DNA of 64,000 nucleotides, from the NCBI GenBank assembly GCA_010093815.1, contig ML996573.1. The stretch is one strand, 5' to 3'. The translations under genes were made by a program, and so were the position numbers. Below the pieces are notes generated by a model. That model ran no database searches and had not been told where the DNA came from. It worked only from the letters and a program-made list of their open reading frames with translations. Below, piece by piece: positions 28,259 to 42,421 of the stretch. The DNA comes from Pseudovirgaria hyperparasitica. Taxonomy: Eukaryota. Within the stretch, counting starts at the first letter, position 1, and the number at the start of each line of letters is the position of its first letter.

Positions 28259-29239
28259 TCATTTCGAAAACTCATACGATATCTCGAAGCTATAGTTAGG
28301 ATTGTAGTGCATCTCCCAGTACGCATCCCAAATAGTCTTCGTGACAGGACCGATCAGCCCATCGCCAACGGGCTTTCCATCAAGCTCTGTGATAGGCATA
28401 ATACCGCCCGCCGTTGTGCACATAAATATCTCCTCCGCACTGTACGCCATCTTGACCGGCACCCTCTCAACCCTAGCCTCCACCCCTTTCTCCCTCGCAA
28501 CGTCCATCACACTCAACCTCGTCACACCCTCCAACACCCCACTTGCAGGTGTATACAACACACCTCTGTTCACAAGCACAATGTTGTATCCCGGCCCCTC
28601 TGTCAATGCCCCCTGGCCATCTGTCAAAAACGGATATTTCGCACCCCGATCCCGTGCCTCGAGCACACCCCGTGTAAAATCTCCCCACTGGTGATTCTTG
28701 ACCGTTGGATCCACACTATGCTCCGGAGTCCTGCTTACTGTCTTAGTGATCACCGCTGCTCCCGTGCCGGCAATCTGCATCTCCGGCGCCATGACCCAAT
28801 AGTACGGCTTCATGATGATATACAAATTGTTCACCTGCTCGGCCTCAGACACTAGCATTGCGGGGAGCATACCCCGCGTCACGATGATATGCACATACAC
28901 ATCGCGCATTCCACTCAGCGCAGCCATCTCGATCAATTTCGCCTTCAGTTCCTCACGTGAGAGGGGGCTCTTGTACCGCATCTTGCTGCATGAGCGTTCA
29001 AATCGGTCCAGGTGGTCGTCGAGGCGGAAGAATCGCCCGTCCCAGATCGCAGGGACATCGTATGTAAGATCGCTCTTGAGGAAGCCTTGGTCTGTGATGG
29101 GAATGCGGGCATCGGCGAGAGGGACGAGTGTGTTGTCAATGCACGCGATACCGGCGGCGTATCTGTTACTAGGATAAGTTGACTGGAGGGTCGAGAGGCG
29201 AGACTGGTAGGCGGCGAAGACTTTTTGCATTGTCGCCAT
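28259..29239 (-). CDS. PLP fold-type IV aminotransferase, (R)-selective amine transaminase-like, intronless
   Basis: DQGFxxSDLTYDV, WDGRFFRLDDH, DPTVKNxQWGD (catalytic Lys181), LEGVTR and CTTAGG. Collinear with the recalled Aspergillus terreus R-ATA. Confidence 0.9.
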   Translation of the reverse strand: MATMQKVFAAYQSRLSTLQSTYPSNRYAAGIACIDNTLVPLADARIPITDQGFLKSDLTYDVPAIWDGRFFRLDDHLDRFERSCSKMRYKSPLSREELKAKLIEMAALSGMRDVYVHIIVTRGMLPAMLVSEAEQVNNLYIIMKPYYWVMAPEMQIAGTGAAVITKTVSRTPEHSVDPTVKNHQWGDFTRGVLEARDRGAKYPFLTDGQGALTEGPGYNIVLVNRGVLYTPASGVLEGVTRLSVMDVAREKGVEARVERVPVKMAYSAEEIFMCTTAGGIMPITELDGKPVGDGLIGPVTKTIWDAYWEMHYNPNYSFEISYEFSK

Positions 29240-30136
29240 ATTGGAGCTCTGGTGCGTGAGTTACTGATCGATCTACAGCACCTAGTGTGCGAGAAGAGTG
29301 TGTTGTGCCCCACTTCGAATGAGGAGGGCCTGAAGCTGTCTCTTATCGCAAGTCACAGAGCTGGCAATCGCAACCACCTCCTAAAAGTATGAGTGCTATA
29401 ATCTTTCATCTTGAGTATGGTAGAGGTGAGTCCTGGGACTTTCCACTTTTTTCTTTGTCGTCAGCCTCCCTTTGCTTTTAACAATATGCCAAGATGTATC
29501 TTACGTTCTCTAAAAAGATCTAGAGTATCTACATTGCCTTACAAATACATGTGTACAGCACTAGAGCTGAAAACAATGTCATATGGTGCATCATTGGACC
29601 TAAGGCCGTGTTGTGCATCCTAAAGTGTTCACCTTCATGATTCGAAAGCGTACAGTTGCGAGACTTTTATCTCTTTTGGATGTCAACACGTGGTGGAAAG
29701 TTAGCGTTCGAGACGGAGCTTAACAGTAGAATTCGAAGACCAGTTGAGAAGAGACGGAAGAGTCCGGATGTGGGATGAACAAGTTTCAATTGAACACATG
29801 GACAAGAAAGGAAGTGGTAAGGATCTCATCTGAGCGGATGAGTTGAAGCCCAGTTTGCCCCTTTGAGCGACCGTCCTACCTCGAAATACGCGCAGATGAT
29901 CATCTCTTTATGGCACCGGGTCCTGTACGTTACTTATAGATTTTGTACGCCACGTCAATGAGCAATGCATGGTCGAGATAGCCTGATCACTTACACAGTA
30001 TAGAGCTTTACCATGACAGTGTGTGAAGATCGTTGAGTGAAATAGACGTAGCTTTGAAACAAAGCATTTGAATTATATCATTTCTCGGGGCTCATAATCC
30101 CAGTAGTAGAAGCATGTCAAATTGACCCCCATGTCA

Positions 30137-33100
30137 TCAACAGCCCTCCAGCTTCGTAATCATGCCCTCTTCTACTTGCACACATCTACTCAAGAGTCGT
30201 CCCCAAACATCCTTACTCTCACGATCTTTATCTCCCTCAGTCAATGTCTTACGATCTCCAATTATAATGACGGCAGTCTTTGCCCTCGTCATAGCAACAT
30301 TGAGCCTTCTCATGTCATTTAGGAACCCCAGTTCATTGTGATTGTTACAGCGAACAGAAACGAATATAATGATGTCTGCTTCGCGACCTTGGTAGCCGTC
30401 GATGCTGCTGATTTCATAAGCGAATATAAGTTTCTTGAGATTCTCGCATTGCTTGGAGTATGGGGCCAGAATGGCTATGCTAGGCTTGAGAGGAGCTTGA
30501 GCATCGGACGTCGCAGAAGGAGCCGCAGGCGTGCTTAGTAGCTCGCAAATCGTCTTACATAGTTTGGCCTGGCCTTGATTGCTCTTTGACTTCTGCCCAA
30601 GATCTTCCGGAAAAGAGCACTGTATGAAGAGGCTGCGAGCAAAAGGAGCATTAGCTCCAATTGATTGTCGTGGCCATGGGAATAGAGTGTCTGGTAGATG
30701 CCTTGCAGATTCGAGTACTTGAGTATGTAACCTGCCAGCGTAGAATTCCATAGACGGAAAAGCGCAAATGTCTTGGTGCATCCGGTATTGTGTATCCAGC
30801 ATGACTTTGCCGACGCCATCACGATTGGGCATGTTGTAGTGACGCTCGAATAGAGAAATATCGAACTCTTGGTTGAGAGCATGCTTCTGCACAGTGGCAC
30901 GTAGCTGCACATGGTCTCCTACCAGGACAGCCCGTTTACAGCCCTTCACAAGAGGTATCAACGTTTCCGGCTCTGTCATCTGAGATGCCTCGTCAATTAG
31001 GACGAATTCGAAACGTTCTTTTCTAAGAAGCCCTAAGCTTGCACCTGCACAAGTAGTAAACACTAAACGAGCTTCCTTGACGCGTTTCTGTGCTGCCTTG
31101 CGCCCTTTGAAGTCTGACGAGAGATCTTTGCCAACCATAGCATCACATGTATACTTCTTCATATCAGGGGATACTTTAAGCAGGCTTGTAGACACTCTGA
31201 CAGGCTCGACACCGGTGCTCTTGACTCCATCCTCCGTGATGAACTTCCGCAACACGTTATCAACGGCATTGTGGCTGCTGCACGCAATGAGCAAGCGCGA
31301 CTTAGGTGCCTCGTTTAAAAGGTCCCTGATGATCTTCACAATTGTGTATGTCTTTCCTGTGCCGGGTGGGCCCCAGAGAAAGCTCAGTGGGTACTTCATC
31401 GCAGCCTCCAAAGCCTGATTCTGGCTGACATTGAGGGTATCGTCTGATGTAAAAGCCAATTTATCGATTGAGGTTGGAGCACCATAATCGGGTAGACCAG
31501 CAATGCCTTTGTACAAAAAGCAGCAGGCCTCACGCTGTGTGTATAACGCAGTAATAGCGTCGAGCATTGACTTCGTGGTCACGAACGATCCACAATTCAC
31601 CAAAGTCCACGAGCATTTGTCTACGTAGTTTGGTGGTGTATGTAGACATCGGAAAGTTGCAGAGCCAAGATCTGATTTTAGGACCAGGGCGTCTATGGAA
31701 CAAGTGGGAGAAAAGGGCGAGTTTTGTGGTGCATTCGTGACCGTAAGTTGTACGTGATCTCCTATCTTCAGAGCGCCTGCCGTAGGAGCATCAATACGAA
31801 GTGTGGCCTTGACAACTGAGAAGCCATCATCTTGCACGGAATCGAATGTGAGACTTAAGGTGTCTTGCCTCTCGATCTTACTCTCGACAGCCTCATCAAC
31901 GTAATTTAGTGCTGTACCGATGAGATTTCTCACGAAATTTCGAATCGCAAGTGGGCGCCCCACTAGAAGCCGAGATGTCTCTGGTTCAAGGGCCTCGAGG
32001 AACATGTCAAGGACAAGGTCAGTAGATCTGACAGTCAGAGCTATCAGTTCGACAAGATCTGCAAAGGCTTGGAACGTCAATTGCTTTAGTTGCATCAAGA
32101 GCAGCTTGAACGTGCCTAGCGCCAAACTCTGAAGGTTGTTTCCTGCTAGGACGATATTTCGAAGCATAGTGGGCGCAAGTTGAATCAACTTGTCTTCTAG
32201 GAACTCTTTGTTATTCTTCCAATATTCAGATTGGAGGAATGGTGTAATTAGATATGGATGCGTGATGAGAAATTCGAGTAAGTAAGTTGCAAAGACCGTT
32301 TGCGAATTCCGGTTAGACCAAGCACTGATGACGGTCAAAGCCCGCATAAAGAGATCTCGGAAGAGAGTCTTATTGTCGAAGGCAGAGAACAATTCGAGTA
32401 CAGACCTCATTTGGTCTGAAGCTGAGATCTGATCGAGCACCTGAAGCTTACCACGCACGATTTGCTTAAATGCTGCAGGATGGGCTGTCCAATCAACCTC
32501 TTGTGGACTCGGAACGGTATACTCTTTGTTTTCTCGTTCATACAGAGGAAGAATCTCGTCCGTGTCTACGTATTCGAGCCATTGGTCTAGGAGCTGCATA
32601 GACTGGACGTCCCTATTGCTGATCGCGTAGATTTCCTGTAATGTATTAGTTACAGCCAGCATCATAACCTATTGAATGAGAGTAGGTGATATATATCAAG
32701 GCTACCCAAGGTCTGGCGGATAGCTTCAATATGAGATGTTGTACATACCGCTTGCAGGATGCCGGACCTCCGGATTCGTCCGACATGTCTCTGGATATCT
32801 GAGCTGATCTTTGCAAGATTGACACTTGCTACGCAATCGAAATTAACTCCATGATCGATTGTTTCTTGCCGTCGTCTCCGCCTATCAGTGGCATTCGTAG
32901 TATTGCGGTACGTAGAGTCATCAGATGCTGCAGCGTTTAAGAACACCCAAGTGTTAGCTCTCTTATTCTCGTAGAGTTGAAAACATGAGTGATCACAGTA
33001 TATCCTGTAGTTTTGTTTCGTCGGAACCACACGATAGGACGTAGATGCAGAGCCCTGAGACCGTGGCAATGCAAATACACGCACCGAAGAGTCAACCTGG

Positions 33101-35507
33101 AATTCTTGAGCTCGCGAGATCTTTCGGGGCACATAGATGGCCAAAGTGAGTCGCTCGTCGACCGAGAATATAATGAGCTTCTTGTGAAACAGCTCAAGCG
33201 TTCGAGTTGTTGTTTCCAGGAATCGTCCCATTCGATCTACACCCGAACTAAAGATGCGCTTCCAATGCAATCTGTGATCGTCAAGCTGAAATCTCTTCAG
33301 TTCCATAGGCTCGACAAGCTCGGATTGCAGTAGACCATTCCACACGAGACTTGGAGCTTCCTTGCTAGGTGGCAAACAATTCGAAATCCAGAGCTTCTGC
33401 TCATCTGACAATGTGCAGAAGTCAAAGAAATCCTGAAAGTCGAGGATGTTTACTTTGTGCGCCTGACACCATTTCATGGTGAGCTGGATTAATTCGAATT
33501 CGGACATGGCTATTCTGTCTCGGTTTAGGAGTAGCTCCATAGCACCAAATGAAAGGCCTTCCCATTGGTTAGAACCTCGCTCTAGGCGGCTTTGTATTAT
33601 CTCTTCGGCTGAGCGATGCAAAACATCGAGCACGAAGTCAGTCTTCTCTGGGCATTTGGGTGGGTCTTCGAGGTTGGGAGGCACCTTAATTCCGACACCG
33701 TCCACGCATTGACTGAACAAACGATTAAGCTGCTGGCATTCAGGGCTCATAGCACCTTTCAATCGAGCCCAGTCCAAGAACAGATGGTTTACTCTACCAA
33801 GCGATGCGTTCGTATAGCGAGCAAAATAGTCGGCTCGATCAGCATCAGACGTGCCTCCAAAATATACTGGCTCTCTCCCGGCCGGATATTCCGCAGGTTG
33901 TGACACAGTTCTCGGCACGATATCTGGATCCCAACAAACGAAGACTATAATCAGGTCAGAGGGCATTACGTGTGAATCAAAAGGTTTATACTTACACTTA
34001 TCGCCGTCTAAGTCGCCTCCAGACATTAGATCCGCACTCGGACGCTTACCTTGGGTTGAGAATATTATACAGTCCCTCAGATGAGACCATTCAGGGATTT
34101 CCACAGCCTTGAACTTTTGCAGATCGCCTGGGTGCAAGCACGGATTTCGCGTGACTAGGACCTCAGTATTCACGACGGTGCGCGCAATCCCATCGCCAAT
34201 TTCAGTGACTCTAACCATGCATTCACCTTCCCTCAGTCGTCCAGGAAGATTCATTGCAGACGATGGATCGCAAATCCCGAAGATCAGTCGTGACTTCGGA
34301 AGCATGATCCGGCACTTTGGCTCGCCTTTCTTATTCAGCATTTTGTCGTACTCTTGAAGTACAAGCTTCCGAGTCGATAACTTTACTGCATCTGCGCCTT
34401 CCATGAGGAGAGTTTCCACCAAATCAGTCCTGTCGCAGTATGAAAGAAATTGAAATGCCAGCATGAGATTATTTTCATCAGCTGCTCGAGCTAGAAAATC
34501 GAGGTACTGGTTCTGCTTCTGTAGCAGTACATCATTTGAGATACCGAGCGCGCTCAATAGCAGAACGATTTGGTCGTTCAAGTAGCCGAAAGTATAAGGC
34601 TAGCCTATATCAGAGCCTGTGATGTGATATGAATAAAGGAGAAACATACTTTAGAATAGGCTACCACTGAGAATGACAGGTCTGCGGCGTCTTTGAATTT
34701 TAGCATAGATTCGCGGAATTTGGCTTCAAGCTTTGGACCTAGAGACGGTTCCAAGGATAAAACACCTTTGTAGCCGCGATACCGTATCTGGAAAACCGAA
34801 GGCAGATACCTTTCATTGCGGTGAACGATACTCCTTCGACGTGCTAGTTCCTTAGCAAGGTGCATTGAGATTATGCCGCAACCATCAGTGAAATTGTAGT
34901 CTCCAACTAACACGTCTGGTATGTCCTCGCAACGTTCCGGCGAGAGGTTTTCGAAAACCGCCTCGGCACTCGAGAATAATAGGCCAAGCCTCTTTGCTTT
35001 CTTAGCAACTGTCTTAAGCTTCGAGAAATCGCCCATTGCATTGATCTTCTCGCTTATCCTGTCCTTCGTATCTGCGAGATTGAAGCATGACCTTGATTTA
35101 AGCTGGCTATTGCTATGTCCAAAGAAGTAGTAGGGTACCCCATTAAGGATAATACCAGTATTGAGCAAGCGAGAGACATATTCAGCAGATTCTCGGGCAG
35201 GTGCTTGCTTGTGTATTCCAGTGCTCTTGTCAGAAATCTGAAGTCTGAAGTCGGCGAAGGAGATTAGCATAAGCTTATCGAGAGATTCGGACTTTGTGAC
35301 GCGATTTGACGGTGCGCTTTCGTAGCGCAGCTGTATCTCCTGGCGCGTAGAAGAGGCAATGACAGATACGGCCTTGATTAGATTCGCTTTGTTCGTTGCT
35401 TGGACGTCAGGCAGGGATACGGTATAGCTCCAAGACTTGTCGCTGGCATTAATGCTATTCTGGAGAATACATCGGAAGCCTCTCGCGTTCTTCTGCTTTG
35501 CCGTCAT
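30137..35507 (-). CDS. RNA-dependent RNA polymerase-SF1 (Upf1/DNA2/NAM7-like) helicase fusion protein, ~1718 aa; introns 34600-34649, 33945-33995, 32636-32748
   Basis: RdRP motifs FFGHSNSQLKSRSC, KRLGLLFS, FTDGCG, FQIRYRGYKG, TRNPCLHPGD and SGGDLDGD. Helicase motifs GPPGTGKT, DEASQ, GDHVQL, QYRM, DGYQGRE and RLNVAMTRAK. Removing three canonical introns leaves 5157 nt in one open frame. Confidence 0.88.
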
Positions 35508-35912
35508 TGCTGAATAGCACCACGTAAGACGAGCCGAGCTGAGGAAGAATGCAGAGGACTTGATTCGCGCGCCACAATCTGGATCTCAACACTACGATTA
35601 TCGCACATGGGTCGGACCCCACTCCAACCAACAGGATCAGTTCCGCGCGATCAATAAGCACGTTTGATCTTTCACTGGTGAGCGAGTTGAACTCCTCTGA
35701 ACAAGCCTCAAACGTGCGCAAACAACCTTACCACAAACCAGTCATTCCGAGAAAGTGAATTTGCAACGAACAAGCCAGTCGTGACTGTGAACACATCAGT
35801 ACCAAACTGCCGTCTCGAAAGTTGGTCTCAGTATATGTCCCCCTTTTGATGATATATGAGCTTGCATCCGAAGCTCTCACGGTCAAAGGTCGCCATGCTT
35901 TCAAGAACCAAA

Positions 35913-36566
35913 ATGCCCCCAAACATTTACATCGTAGGTGCCCAATGCACTGGCAAGACCACGCTGGTAAAAGCTCTGGAGAAACACTTATCATCCCAGG
36001 AGATCGACGGAGTTGATCGAGGCCAGATCACGCCACCAACGATCATCACTGAGCTTGCGAGGACCATCATGAGGCGCCATGGCTATGATCGTTACGACAT
36101 CACCTCAAAACCGGATCGCGCTTTCGAGCTTCAGAAACTGATTCTGCAAGGTCAGGCTGAGATAGAGACGAAACTGGCGCTGGACAAGGCAGGATGGTAC
36201 ATTTCAGATCGCTCCGGTATCGATCCCCTCGTCTACACCAAGCTGTACCGCGGGAACGATGGCATCGAGGAGCTGATCAAGTCAGAGCCATGGCAGCTAC
36301 TCAAGGAGAAGATGAGACAGTCAGTTGTGATTGTTTGTGAAGCTGGATGTGACTGGCTCGTTGATGACGAGTTCAGGGTCATGCCTAAAGATGGAACAGA
36401 TGAATGGATGCAATGGCATTACGCTTTCTTGGAGCTTTTGCGGTCGCAGAGAATCGACTATCACGTCATTCCAGCTTCAATGAAGAGCATTGATGATCGC
36501 GTCAAAGCGGTGTTGGCATTCTTGAGTGGGTTTGAGGAGAAGAGAATCCCGCGGATGGAGAAATGA
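35913..36566 (+). CDS. P-loop NTPase/kinase of the NadR/Ttd14 (AAA_28)-like family, intronless
   Basis: Walker A GAQCTGKTT right after an N-terminal beta strand, then TELAR, ISDRSGIDPLVY (DR motif of nucleoside/nucleotide kinase-like P-loops) and lid-like DDEFR. Alternative in-frame ATGs at 35856 and 35895. Confidence 0.8.
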   Translation: MPPNIYIVGAQCTGKTTLVKALEKHLSSQEIDGVDRGQITPPTIITELARTIMRRHGYDRYDITSKPDRAFELQKLILQGQAEIETKLALDKAGWYISDRSGIDPLVYTKLYRGNDGIEELIKSEPWQLLKEKMRQSVVIVCEAGCDWLVDDEFRVMPKDGTDEWMQWHYAFLELLRSQRIDYHVIPASMKSIDDRVKAVLAFLSGFEEKRIPRMEK

Positions 36567-36974: not shown

Positions 36975-38621
36975 ATGGCTGCATTACGACCGTCTCTCTG
37001 GCGAGCCTTTCGACGTCTCAACACAAGAATAGCACAGCAGGCAAAGTGGGGAATCTTGCAAAGATGCACACCACTAAACAGTCGAGCCTTCTCCACAACG
37101 CAATCAAACCGGTTAATGGAAACATCAGGTTTCAATGAGGAGCAATTGACGGTTCGAGATGCTATACAGAAGATATGTTCGAATTATACAGATGTGCTAC
37201 AGCCTATCACACCCAACGCGATTTGACGCTAAGCTGGAATAGGAATATTGGATGGAACATGATCAGAGCGGAGAGTATCCACACGAGCTCCATGCAGCAT
37301 TGGCAAAGGATGGCTGGATAGGTATTGCGTTGCCAGAAGAACTTGGAGGTGCAGGTCTGGGTATCTCAGAGGCTACTATGATGCTTCATACAATCGCGGA
37401 GTGAGGCTGACTTCGAGATGGCGATATGTATTACTTATAAATTCTAGGAGTGGGGCCGGTATTGCTGGAGCACAGTCAATACATGCTAATGTTTATGCTA
37501 CACAGGTTTGCCCTCGAGCGAATGCTGAAGATGGATGCTAACACATACAGCCTGTTGCCAAGTTCGCTACCCCTGAGCAACGACAAGAATGGCTTCCAAA
37601 GCTGATCAGGGGAGAATCACGGACCTGCTTCGGAGTGTCAGTCACTTCTATTCCAATCCTCCTCAGCTACGACTGATAAGCCCAGCACTGAACCGAACAC
37701 CGGTCTCGAAACACTTAAACTCCGCACAACCGCCACTCGCGACGGCGACACGTACAGAATTAGCGGCCAAAAGATGTCCGTATACAACCAATGCCCCTTC
37801 CGTCATCTTCTTCCCTCTACTGAACTACACATAGCTGGATTTCATCCGCTCAAGTCGCCAGCCACATGGTGCTCCTGGCACGCACAACGCCCCTAGAATC
37901 CGTCACGAAAGCCTCCGAAGGCCTCTCGCTCTTTTATATTCCATTCGACCGCTCCCAACCAGGCCTAGATCTTCGCCGCATTCCAAAAATGGGTGGCCGC
38001 GCTGTCGATGCCAACGAAGTCTTCTTCGACAACTACACAGTCCCGGCATCGGCGCTCATCGGCGCCGAGGGTCAGGGGTTTAAGATCGTACTGCACGGCA
38101 TGAACGCCGAGCGCTGTCTTCTGGCAGGCGAAGCCCTAGGCCTTGGATATGCGGCGCTGGGTCGAGCGGCAAAGTATGCGCGCGAGAGGGTGGTTTTCGG
38201 ACGGCCTATTGGGATGAATCAGGGGATCCAGCACCCACTGGCGAGCGCATTCATGCATCTCGAGGCAGCCAAATTAAGCACCTATCACGCAGCGAGGCTT
38301 TATGATGCGAGTAGGACGGACTCGGGGGTGACGCAGCATGCAATTGGTGTGGCGTGTAACAGTGCGAAGTATCTTGCTGCGGAAGCAGCATTCGTAGCTT
38401 GTGAACGGGCGGTGATGGCATTAGGCGGGATGGGATATGCGCAGGAGTATCATGTGGAGAGGTATCTCCGAGAATGCTTTGTTCCACGGATTGCGCCGGT
38501 GAGCCGTGTAAGTATTATGCTGATGTCTACTTGTGATGGGATGGGATGTTGACAAAAGGGATAGGAGATGATCATGAACTTTATCGGCGAGAAGGCGTTG
38601 GGCTTACCGAGAAGCTACTAG
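36975..38621 (+). CDS. Mitochondrial acyl-CoA dehydrogenase (about 6 introns)
   Basis: Arg-rich presequence, GWIGIALPEELGGAG, CFGV-TEPNTG, ISGQK-WIS, NAERCLLA, ALGGMGYAQEYHVERYLRE and LGLPRSY*. Confidence 0.92.
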
Positions 38622-41513: not shown

Positions 41514-42421
41514 ATGCCAGCTCCCGCAGGTACCAAGCGCGTCAAGGTACTATAGTTCACCCTCGTATCGTACTCAATAGTCGCATGCTAACGGCAGCCA
41601 GGGCAAGCGCATAACTCGAAGCTTCAGTACGTTCGCGACCTCCTGCTCGCGCACACACCTGCTCACTCAGAATTACAGTCATCGGATCCGAATCATGGCC
41701 ACTCGATGACACCAACCGCCATGAGGGCATTCCCAAAGATCACACCAAAGGCTGGCGTGTATATATCAAGAACATCGAAGGCGGGCCCGACATCACGACA
41801 TGGCTACAGAAAGTGCAGTTCAAGATCTTCCACTCGTACCCGAATCCTCATCGCATGATAGATAAGTGCAAGGATCAGTGCTTCGAGGTCCGCGAGACGG
41901 GCTGGGGCGGCTTCAATATCGACCTTCGGCTATTCTTCCAACCCGTCGCGCACGAGAAGCCGCAGTACCGCCTGCATTTCCTTCAGCTAGAGCCGTACGG
42001 GACAGAGGCAGACAAGCTCGAGCAAGTCGAGAAGAAGATGGTGCGCAGCGAAATTTGCGAAATGATAGAATTCAATGAGCCGACCGAGGCCTTTTTCAAT
42101 GCGCTCACAGACCCCAAGCAATTCGACTATCTGTCGAAGGACAAACATAAGGGCAAGAAAGGCGTCGGCACATTCGGGCTCGGATATAGTGTCGAACTTG
42201 CGGAACAAACGACACCGACAAATCCATATACGAAGGAGCTGGAAAGAAAACAGGTGCAGACCTTTGAGGCAGCGGAGAAGGTGGTTGAAAGATTGATGAT
42301 CGAGGAGAAAGGGCATACCGAGGAAATGGCGAAGCGCAAAGCGGCGCTGAAAGAGGAGGAGCGAAAGGTGCTGGCGGAGCTGGAAACTGTGCGTGCCGCG
42401 AAAAGGGCTGCTGCGGCATGA
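41514..42421 (+). CDS. YAF9: YEATS-domain protein Yaf9 (NuA4/SWR1 subunit); possible extra upstream exon at 41142-41337
   Basis: MPAPAGTKRVK-GKRITRSF-...HTKGWRVYIK...KVQFKIFHSYPNP...FEVRETGWGGF, with a coiled-coil C-terminus. Confidence 0.85.

Follow-up and report, generated by a model that had tools for sequence, protein, structure and literature searches.

A spliced gene of Pseudovirgaria hyperparasitica encodes a probable Fgrdrp5 ortholog in which an RNA-dependent RNA polymerase is joined to a Upf1-like helicase

We analyzed a window of 64,000 nucleotides from Pseudovirgaria hyperparasitica (the whole stretch of DNA under study; contig ML996573.1 of assembly GCA_010093815.1), and in particular a minus-strand locus at 30137-35507 that encodes a cellular RNA-dependent RNA polymerase (RdRP) and a superfamily 1 (SF1) helicase. 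Three stop-to-stop open reading frames (ORFs) lie on this strand, at 34605-35585 (ORF1), 32662-34599 (ORF2) and 30137-32668 (ORF3). A preliminary description of the sequence had listed the same three ORFs, with ends that were off by only a few bases, and had proposed that canonical introns join them into one frame of 1718 residues. After excision of the three introns, the coding sequence measures 5157 nt and reads without interruption through 1718 codons to its stop, and the proposal is borne out by this open frame, by spliced contigs and by exon junctions that are gapless against homologs. Exon 1 (34650-35507) starts with the ATG at 35507, encodes residues 1-286 and contains the N-terminal part of the polymerase; its N-terminus lines up with the N-termini of homologous proteins. 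Intron 1 (34600-34649; 50 nt, GTATGT..TAG) is followed by exon 2 (33996-34599; residues 287-487), which encodes the catalytic part of the polymerase and ends just past the DLDGD motif, and then by intron 2 (33945-33995; 51 nt, GTAAGT..TAG). Exon 3 (32749-33944; residues 488-886) carries the remainder of the polymerase, with the Pfam match extending to about 33673, and then a conserved region that matches no Pfam family; the exon has conserved columns in both of our homolog alignments (A1 and A4). Intron 3 (32636-32748; 113 nt, GTATGT..ACTAAT..CAG) includes a branch-point-like ACTAAT element, and its removal links the polymerase frame to the helicase frame of exon 4 (30137-32635; residues 887-1718 plus stop), which encodes a helical domain, a beta-barrel and a Upf1-like helicase core.

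Only two public sequencing runs, X1 and X2, contain this DNA; they derive from one sample in one study, and the kind of library is not on record. Each run gave a single contig (5613 nt for X1 and 5756 nt for X2) that spans 30000-35700 with zero mismatches and lacks exactly the 113, 51 and 50 nt of the three introns, leaving CT..AC ends on the plus strand. Because the introns are present in the genome and exactly these GT..AG intervals are missing from the contigs, the contigs are most simply explained as cDNA; they do not define the transcript ends. All three exon junctions are gapless in a MAFFT alignment with ten homologs (ascomycetes and one basidiomycete), and the peptide at the fusion junction (...GILQA joined to EIYAISNRDV...) sits within a conserved block that is kept in each of the ten. 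A pseudogene reading was rejected, as the frame and all of the motifs are intact; neither the motifs nor the conservation among homologs gave any sign of gene decay.

If intron 3 were retained, the frame would stop at 32662-32664. The locus could then produce two separate proteins, an RdRP-only product that ends at 32662 and a helicase translated from a start of its own at ATGs around 32664-32659. Intron 3 does hold a stop codon that the upstream frame would run into, along with ATGs for the downstream frame, and the public P. hyperparasitica protein from this gene, P0121 (806 residues), has no helicase. P0121 is 100% identical to our model over residues 1-774 and then diverges. Its last 32 residues are read from 32927-32832 in a different frame, which points to a spurious intron at about 33084-32928, and the X1 and X2 contigs contradict this intron by running colinearly across the interval. 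The public model truncates the protein and loses the helicase, and in this narrow sense the fusion was indeed hidden, as had been claimed. Against two proteins stand the contigs from both runs, which are spliced at 32636-32748 and colinear elsewhere, as well as the conserved junction peptide and the presence of both domains in 44 of the 46 proteins of at least 1400 residues among the 150 best representatives that the RdRP ORF retrieved in an exhaustive HMMER search. We therefore regard a split into two products as very improbable.

The polymerase half matches the cellular RdRP family PF05183 in two pieces, with profile positions 13-238 on ORF1 (145 bits) and 243-538 of 582 on ORF2 (194 bits), against a cut-off of 23.8 bits; in P0121, which is free of introns, the match covers residues 64-578 and scores 380.6 bits. 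DLDGD occupies residues 482-486 (34000-34014), the catalytic DxDGD loop is intact, and GGDLDGD is at least 90% conserved across 45-47 aligned homologs. In a sequence search of solved chains in the Protein Data Bank (PDB), this half matched plant RDR2 at an E-value of 8.5e-22 and QDE-1 more weakly, at about 1e-9.

The helicase half is found on ORF3, which matches the Pfam families AAA_11 (148 bits) and AAA_12 (160 bits). The SF1 core with its two RecA-like domains lies at 30149-31429 on the minus strand and matches solved Upf1/NAM7 chains at about 9e-51; weaker sequence matches follow to IGHMBP2, SETX/Sen1, DNA2, ZNFX1 (3.7e-27) and Aquarius. Its motifs, for which we assume the SF1 numbering from I to VI, are GPPGTGKT (Walker A; 31349-31372), DEASQ (30980-30994), GDHVQL (30902-30919), QYRM (30779-30790), QGRE (30380-30391) and RLNVAMTRAK (motif VI; 30278-30307), all on the minus strand. 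Across 47 aligned sequences, there is no variation at the Walker A, DE, Q, GD, QYR, QGxE and RxNVxxTR residues. None of the three ORFs matched, at E ≤ 0.01, a Pfam family corresponding to the cysteine-histidine-rich (CH) zinc domain of Upf1.

We modeled the exon-4 ORF with AlphaFold2 using 46 homologs, and the model had a mean predicted local distance difference test score (pLDDT) of 89.0 and a predicted template-modeling score (pTM) of 0.86. Along the chain it shows first a helical domain, then a beta-barrel with a stalk helix, and last the two RecA-like domains. Foldseek returned Upf1 (2xzo_A) as the top match to this model with an E-value of 1.5e-37, followed by SETX, IGHMBP2, DNA2, Sen1, ZNFX1 and Aquarius. 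The alignments to Upf1 covered 640-680 columns, which exceeds the two RecA domains and so includes the barrel and the stalk. In the model, the barrel (31586-31876, minus strand; ORF3 residues 265-361), which precedes the stalk helix, occupies a position equivalent to the Upf1 barrel, to which we take the label 1B to apply. The C-terminal half is thus modeled as a Upf1-like SF1 helicase complete with its accessory barrel and stalk. Between polymerase and helicase, the model places an all-helical domain at 31883-32611 on the minus strand (ORF3 residues 20-262). Searches with phmmer matched this domain in Fusarium and Pleurotus and in none of 10 tested fused proteins from outside the Dikarya, and by sequence it was found only in Dikarya homologs.

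Long relatives of the protein are numerous. A search limited to proteins of 1477-4215 residues gave 249 relatives among 8000 scored candidates, and every one of the 120 listed combines PF05183 with PF13086 and/or PF13087. The listed relatives are mostly 1650-1790 residues long and come from many Pezizomycotina and Agaricomycotina. They bear database names such as "RNA dependent RNA polymerase-domain-containing protein" and "related to NAM7", the latter in keeping with an earlier warning that such proteins are easily auto-named as a helicase of nonsense-mediated decay (NMD). FGSG_09076, which is the Fusarium graminearum protein Fgrdrp5 (PMC11237814, 2024), is among them. The spliced model aligns with FGSG_09076 in a single high-scoring segment pair of 1741 columns with 44.7% identity, residues 9-1717 against residues 8-1713. 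Fgrdrp5 is likewise an RdRP-helicase of nearly the same length (1721 versus 1718 residues), although it comes from a different fungal class. We built quick IQ-TREE phylogenies of the RdRP (40 rows) and of the helicase (32 rows), without unfused outgroups. The window protein fell within an ascomycete clade of 8 rows that includes Fgrdrp5; the Shimodaira-Hasegawa-like approximate likelihood ratio test (SH-aLRT) support was 97 for the RdRP and 98 for the helicase. Both trees recovered identical groups, namely Ascomycota, Basidiomycota, Glomeromycota, green algae and a sponge-type cluster.

Together, these results lead us to conclude, with a probability of roughly 0.85, that the locus is one expressed four-exon gene whose 1718-residue product is the ortholog of Fgrdrp5, in a lineage of fungal RdRPs that always have a Upf1-like SF1 helicase at the C-terminus. 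The order of domains is RdRP (residues about 64-580), the conserved region without a Pfam match, the helical domain, the barrel with its stalk and the two RecA domains. The Fusarium study places Fgrdrp5 on a branch apart from QDE-1, SAD-1 and RRP-3, assigns it extra DEXDc and AAA (PF13087) domains, and cites SAD-3 and Hrr1 in its discussion (PMC11237814). Deletion of the gene lowered ascospore discharge to 47.6%, and the protein contributes, with Fgrdrp1 and Fgrdrp2, to how exonic small interfering RNAs (ex-siRNAs) are made and accumulate (PMC11237814). That article calls the Fgrdrp5 helicase DEAD-box, whereas the helicase of the window is of the SF1 Upf1-like type.

The fusion is therefore already known, widespread and conserved across the Dikarya, and it has been named and knocked out in Fusarium. 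With respect to the preliminary description, the anatomy stood and the novelty did not. The gene is a single unit with three introns, and the intron at 32636-32748 is spliced in the contigs of both public runs, whose type of library went unrecorded. By its Pfam match, the N-terminal part is a eukaryotic RdRP, with intact DLDGD where it had been placed (34000-34014); all of the SF1 motifs were located in the C-terminal part, and the Pfam scan agreed that the helicase is without the Upf1 CH domain. The novelty that had been implied for the fusion falls away, since the gene groups with Fgrdrp5, for which a fused architecture and a knockout are published (PMC11237814), and that fused clade is one that had already been characterized. 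An antiviral or anti-transposon role had also been raised as a possibility; the Fgrdrp5 phenotype in print has to do with ex-siRNAs and ascospore discharge. The lineage is nonetheless easily missed, given that the public model at this locus ends at 806 residues. It also seems to have been overlooked in Aspergillus fumigatus, for which the introduction of a preprint (10.1101/2024.05.24.595671) counts two RdRPs and our search listed a 1655-residue member of the clade (P0099, from a cluster of 91 sequences).

The fused architecture reaches well beyond the Dikarya. The exhaustive HMMER search had returned 2917 representatives at E ≤ 1e-3, 144 of them at E ≤ 1e-30, and among the best 150 listed the long representatives without a match to the helicase profile were P0167 and P0223. 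From Pfam and precomputed lists, RdRP-helicase fusions were found in Glomeromycota (Diversispora, Gigaspora and Racocetra), in the amphioxus Branchiostoma belcheri, in the sponges Ephydatia, Dysidea and Oopsacas, in the rotifers Adineta and Rotaria, in the green algae Edaphochlamys, Gonium and Chlamydomonas schloesseri, and in one diatom protein. The fused helicases from outside the Dikarya score 153-209 bits against the window helicase, no higher than Upf1 itself (176 bits), and a single origin of the fusion across kingdoms is no more than a possibility. A metagenome scan with exon 1 yielded four loci with distant RdRPs only (short pieces, 22-41% identity) and no helicase or AAA_28 match. Three of the collected proteins deserve separate mention. 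In each tree, the diatom protein (P0362, from Seminavis robusta) groups within the sponge-type animal cluster on a long branch, a placement that could reflect contamination, horizontal transfer or a long-branch artefact. P0167, from the crinoid Anneissia japonica, is 1730 residues long and has two RdRP stretches and no helicase. P0262, from C. schloesseri, has an N-terminal cytochrome P450 piece, which is probably the product of a merged gene model.

Several known proteins and complexes resemble the window protein in part. The Branchiostoma lanceolatum protein BL02069, which has AAA_12 according to a figure legend in PMC6396948, likewise places an RdRP ahead of a helicase. In B. belcheri P0184, PF05183 lies at residues 109-595 and AAA_12 at 1565-1751. 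The RdRP part of these animal proteins is about 30-34% identical to that of the window protein, and the middle region is not alignable; sponge and rotifer forms carry an added N-terminal AAA_28 domain that the window protein is without. A cellular RdRP also works with an SF1-type RNA helicase in the RNA-directed RNA polymerase complex (RDRC) of S. pombe (Rdp1-Hrr1-Cid12), in the SAD-1/SAD-3 pair of Neurospora and in the RDR6/SDE3 pair of Arabidopsis, but those partners are separate polypeptides and here they are covalently joined. In addition, the window helicase is nearer to Upf1 (9e-51) than to ZNFX1 (3.7e-27), which we take to be a relative of Hrr1 and SAD-3. Dictyostelium RrpA-C and the corresponding Naegleria proteins combine an N-terminal DExH (Dicer-type) helicase and a cellular RdRP in one chain; their helicase belongs to superfamily 2 and precedes the polymerase, whereas that of the window is an SF1 Upf1-like enzyme at the C-terminus. 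Upf1/NAM7 shares with the window helicase the SF1 motifs and the barrel and stalk ahead of the first RecA domain, but Upf1 has the CH zinc domain and the window protein bears a large RdRP N-terminus instead. The window protein is not a Upf1 ortholog, despite the NAM7-related names that are frequent in databases.

By analogy, we tentatively propose, at somewhat less than even odds for the scheme as a whole, that the single chain is a built-in counterpart of RdRP-helicase complexes such as the S. pombe RDRC. Upf1-like helicases translocate 5' to 3'. The helicase part would load onto a single-stranded transcript and move toward its 3' end, removing structure and bound protein on the way, and would then pass the RNA 3' end to the tethered polymerase. 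The polymerase would copy the RNA into a complementary strand, and the resulting double-stranded RNA would enter the Dicer-dependent production of ex-siRNAs, as the Fgrdrp5 knockout suggests (PMC11237814). How a 5'-to-3' helicase and a polymerase cooperate on one chain is the question that this lineage raises.

A number of points weigh against our reading of the gene and its function. The X1 and X2 contigs count as one line of evidence because both come from one sample, and they are compatible with a minor intron-retaining isoform. The polymerase activity, the polarity of the helicase and the coupling between them are what we infer. An RdRP reads its template 3' to 5' and a Upf1-like helicase moves 5' to 3'; given these opposite polarities, joint travel along one strand is not simple, and release of the product or action on the non-template strand is equally possible. 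Deletion of Fgrdrp5 had no effect on the sexual silencing induced by tandem repeats (TRISS), as stated in PMC12366691. Finally, the authors who described the amphioxus RdRPs speculate (PMC6396948) that these enzymes act outside RNA interference.

These last two observations would also fit a fused enzyme that operates outside Dicer/Argonaute silencing, in RNA surveillance or the remodeling of ribonucleoproteins. Here the helicase would pick out aberrant or stalled mRNAs; the polymerase, producing no precursors of siRNAs, would tag these mRNAs or convert them into duplexes for decay, or would influence the processing of rRNA. By both sequence and fold, the helicase is indeed nearest to the NMD helicase Upf1/NAM7; however, the CH domain, which is the UPF2-binding part of Upf1, is absent from the Pfam matches of the fused protein. 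Genes for ribosome biogenesis are enriched among the genes that go down in the Fgrdrp5 mutant, and yet the same article assigns Fgrdrp5, together with Fgrdrp1 and Fgrdrp2, its role in ex-siRNA biogenesis and accumulation (PMC11237814). On balance, we take a function outside silencing to be the main rival reading but the less likely one, and we retain the RDRC-like scheme as our working model.

The RdRP-helicase gene lies head-to-head with a plus-strand gene at 35913-36566, with 405 nt between the start of that gene and the start codon of the RdRP. The product of this neighbor is a P-loop protein of 217 residues of the AAA_28 (NadR/Ttd14-type) family (PF13521, E = 7.4e-23, 82 bits), to which the database protein P0367 is 100% identical. 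An AlphaFold2 model of this protein (pLDDT 89.3) is similar to thymidylate kinases (E about 1e-5), to deoxynucleoside kinases and to the kinase domain of NadR (8x7f_A; TMq 0.69, root-mean-square deviation 3.0), and the neighbor is thus predicted to have a nucleoside/nucleotide-kinase fold. In 40 orthologs, no variation is seen at its Walker A residues (G9, T13, G14 and K15), at D99-R100-S101 or at certain other polar positions.

The same Pfam family appears in fused form in animals, where many RdRP-helicase homologs of about 1900-2100 residues, including those of sponges and rotifers, begin with an AAA_28 domain. A profile of this animal domain matched 93 of 366 collected proteins, in each case beginning no later than residue 85, and matched none of the 120 listed Dikarya RdRP-helicases. 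We then asked whether the two genes are adjacent elsewhere, using the five species that are named among both the RdRP-helicase matches and the AAA_28 orthologs (Stemphylium lycopersici, Diplogelasinospora grovesii, Oculimacula yallundae, Saxophila tyrrhenica and Cudoniella acicularis). In all five, the two proteins have consecutive GenBank accession numbers and a contig of equal length, and in three they also have consecutive locus tags. We read the consecutive numbers as adjacency of the genes in 5/5 species; the head-to-head orientation is known from the window, and the other species are known from numbering alone. With the window, this makes six genomes, presumably from three ascomycete classes.

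Based on this conservation, the AAA_28 kinase-fold protein is probably a third component of the system, encoded by a separate gene in Pezizomycotina and fused N-terminally in sponges and rotifers. A more specific version, in which AAA_28, RdRP and helicase form an ancient three-enzyme module, with AAA_28 kept as an adjacent gene in Pezizomycotina and serving the polymerase by acting on nucleotides or on the 5' ends of RNA, seems to us an even bet. The neighbor could instead be an unrelated housekeeping enzyme, for example a nicotinamide riboside kinase, whose adjacency is mere inherited synteny. The Joint Genome Institute (JGI) auto-names AAA_28 relatives nicotinamide riboside kinase, orientation and spacing are seen in the window only, and the animal AAA_28 profile fits the window neighbor no better (67 bits) than the generic Pfam profile does (82 bits). 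These scores suggest family-level kinship only between the neighbor and the animal fused domain. Set against a housekeeping role are the adjacency in 5/5 checkable species and the window, the N-terminal fusion of the same family to RdRP-helicases in sponges and rotifers, and the Walker A and further polar residues that are invariant across 40 sequences. A housekeeping identity is plausible at a little under even odds, and a conserved neighbor that is fused in animals offers a concrete, testable candidate for a third pathway component. Specific orthology of the neighbor to the animal fused AAA_28 was considered and found unsupported, at 67 bits versus 82 for generic Pfam. A literature search, whose scope took in neither bioRxiv supplements nor the supplementary tables of PMC11237814, found no paper that ties a cellular RdRP to AAA_28 or NadR, and the AAA_28 partner is the one lead of this analysis that we did not meet in print. 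Other literature queries brought up nothing of relevance to the fused clade beyond papers cited here.

The remaining neighborhood consists of ordinary metabolic genes. No Dicer, Argonaute or other silencing genes were found near the RdRP-helicase gene in the window. A class IV aminotransferase gene lies at 28259-29260 on the minus strand, and acyl-CoA dehydrogenase and YEATS-domain protein genes lie on the plus strand at 37824-38552 and 41615-42421, respectively, with a sugar transporter and GTP cyclohydrolase II farther out. The leader of the RdRP-helicase gene, which is covered by contig X1 (35504-35821, to about 35821), contains three upstream ATGs. A minus-strand upstream ORF of 34 codons (35504-35608) lies within this X1 cover, and its TGA overlaps the main start codon (ATGA), an arrangement that, judged by sequence, may provide translational control.

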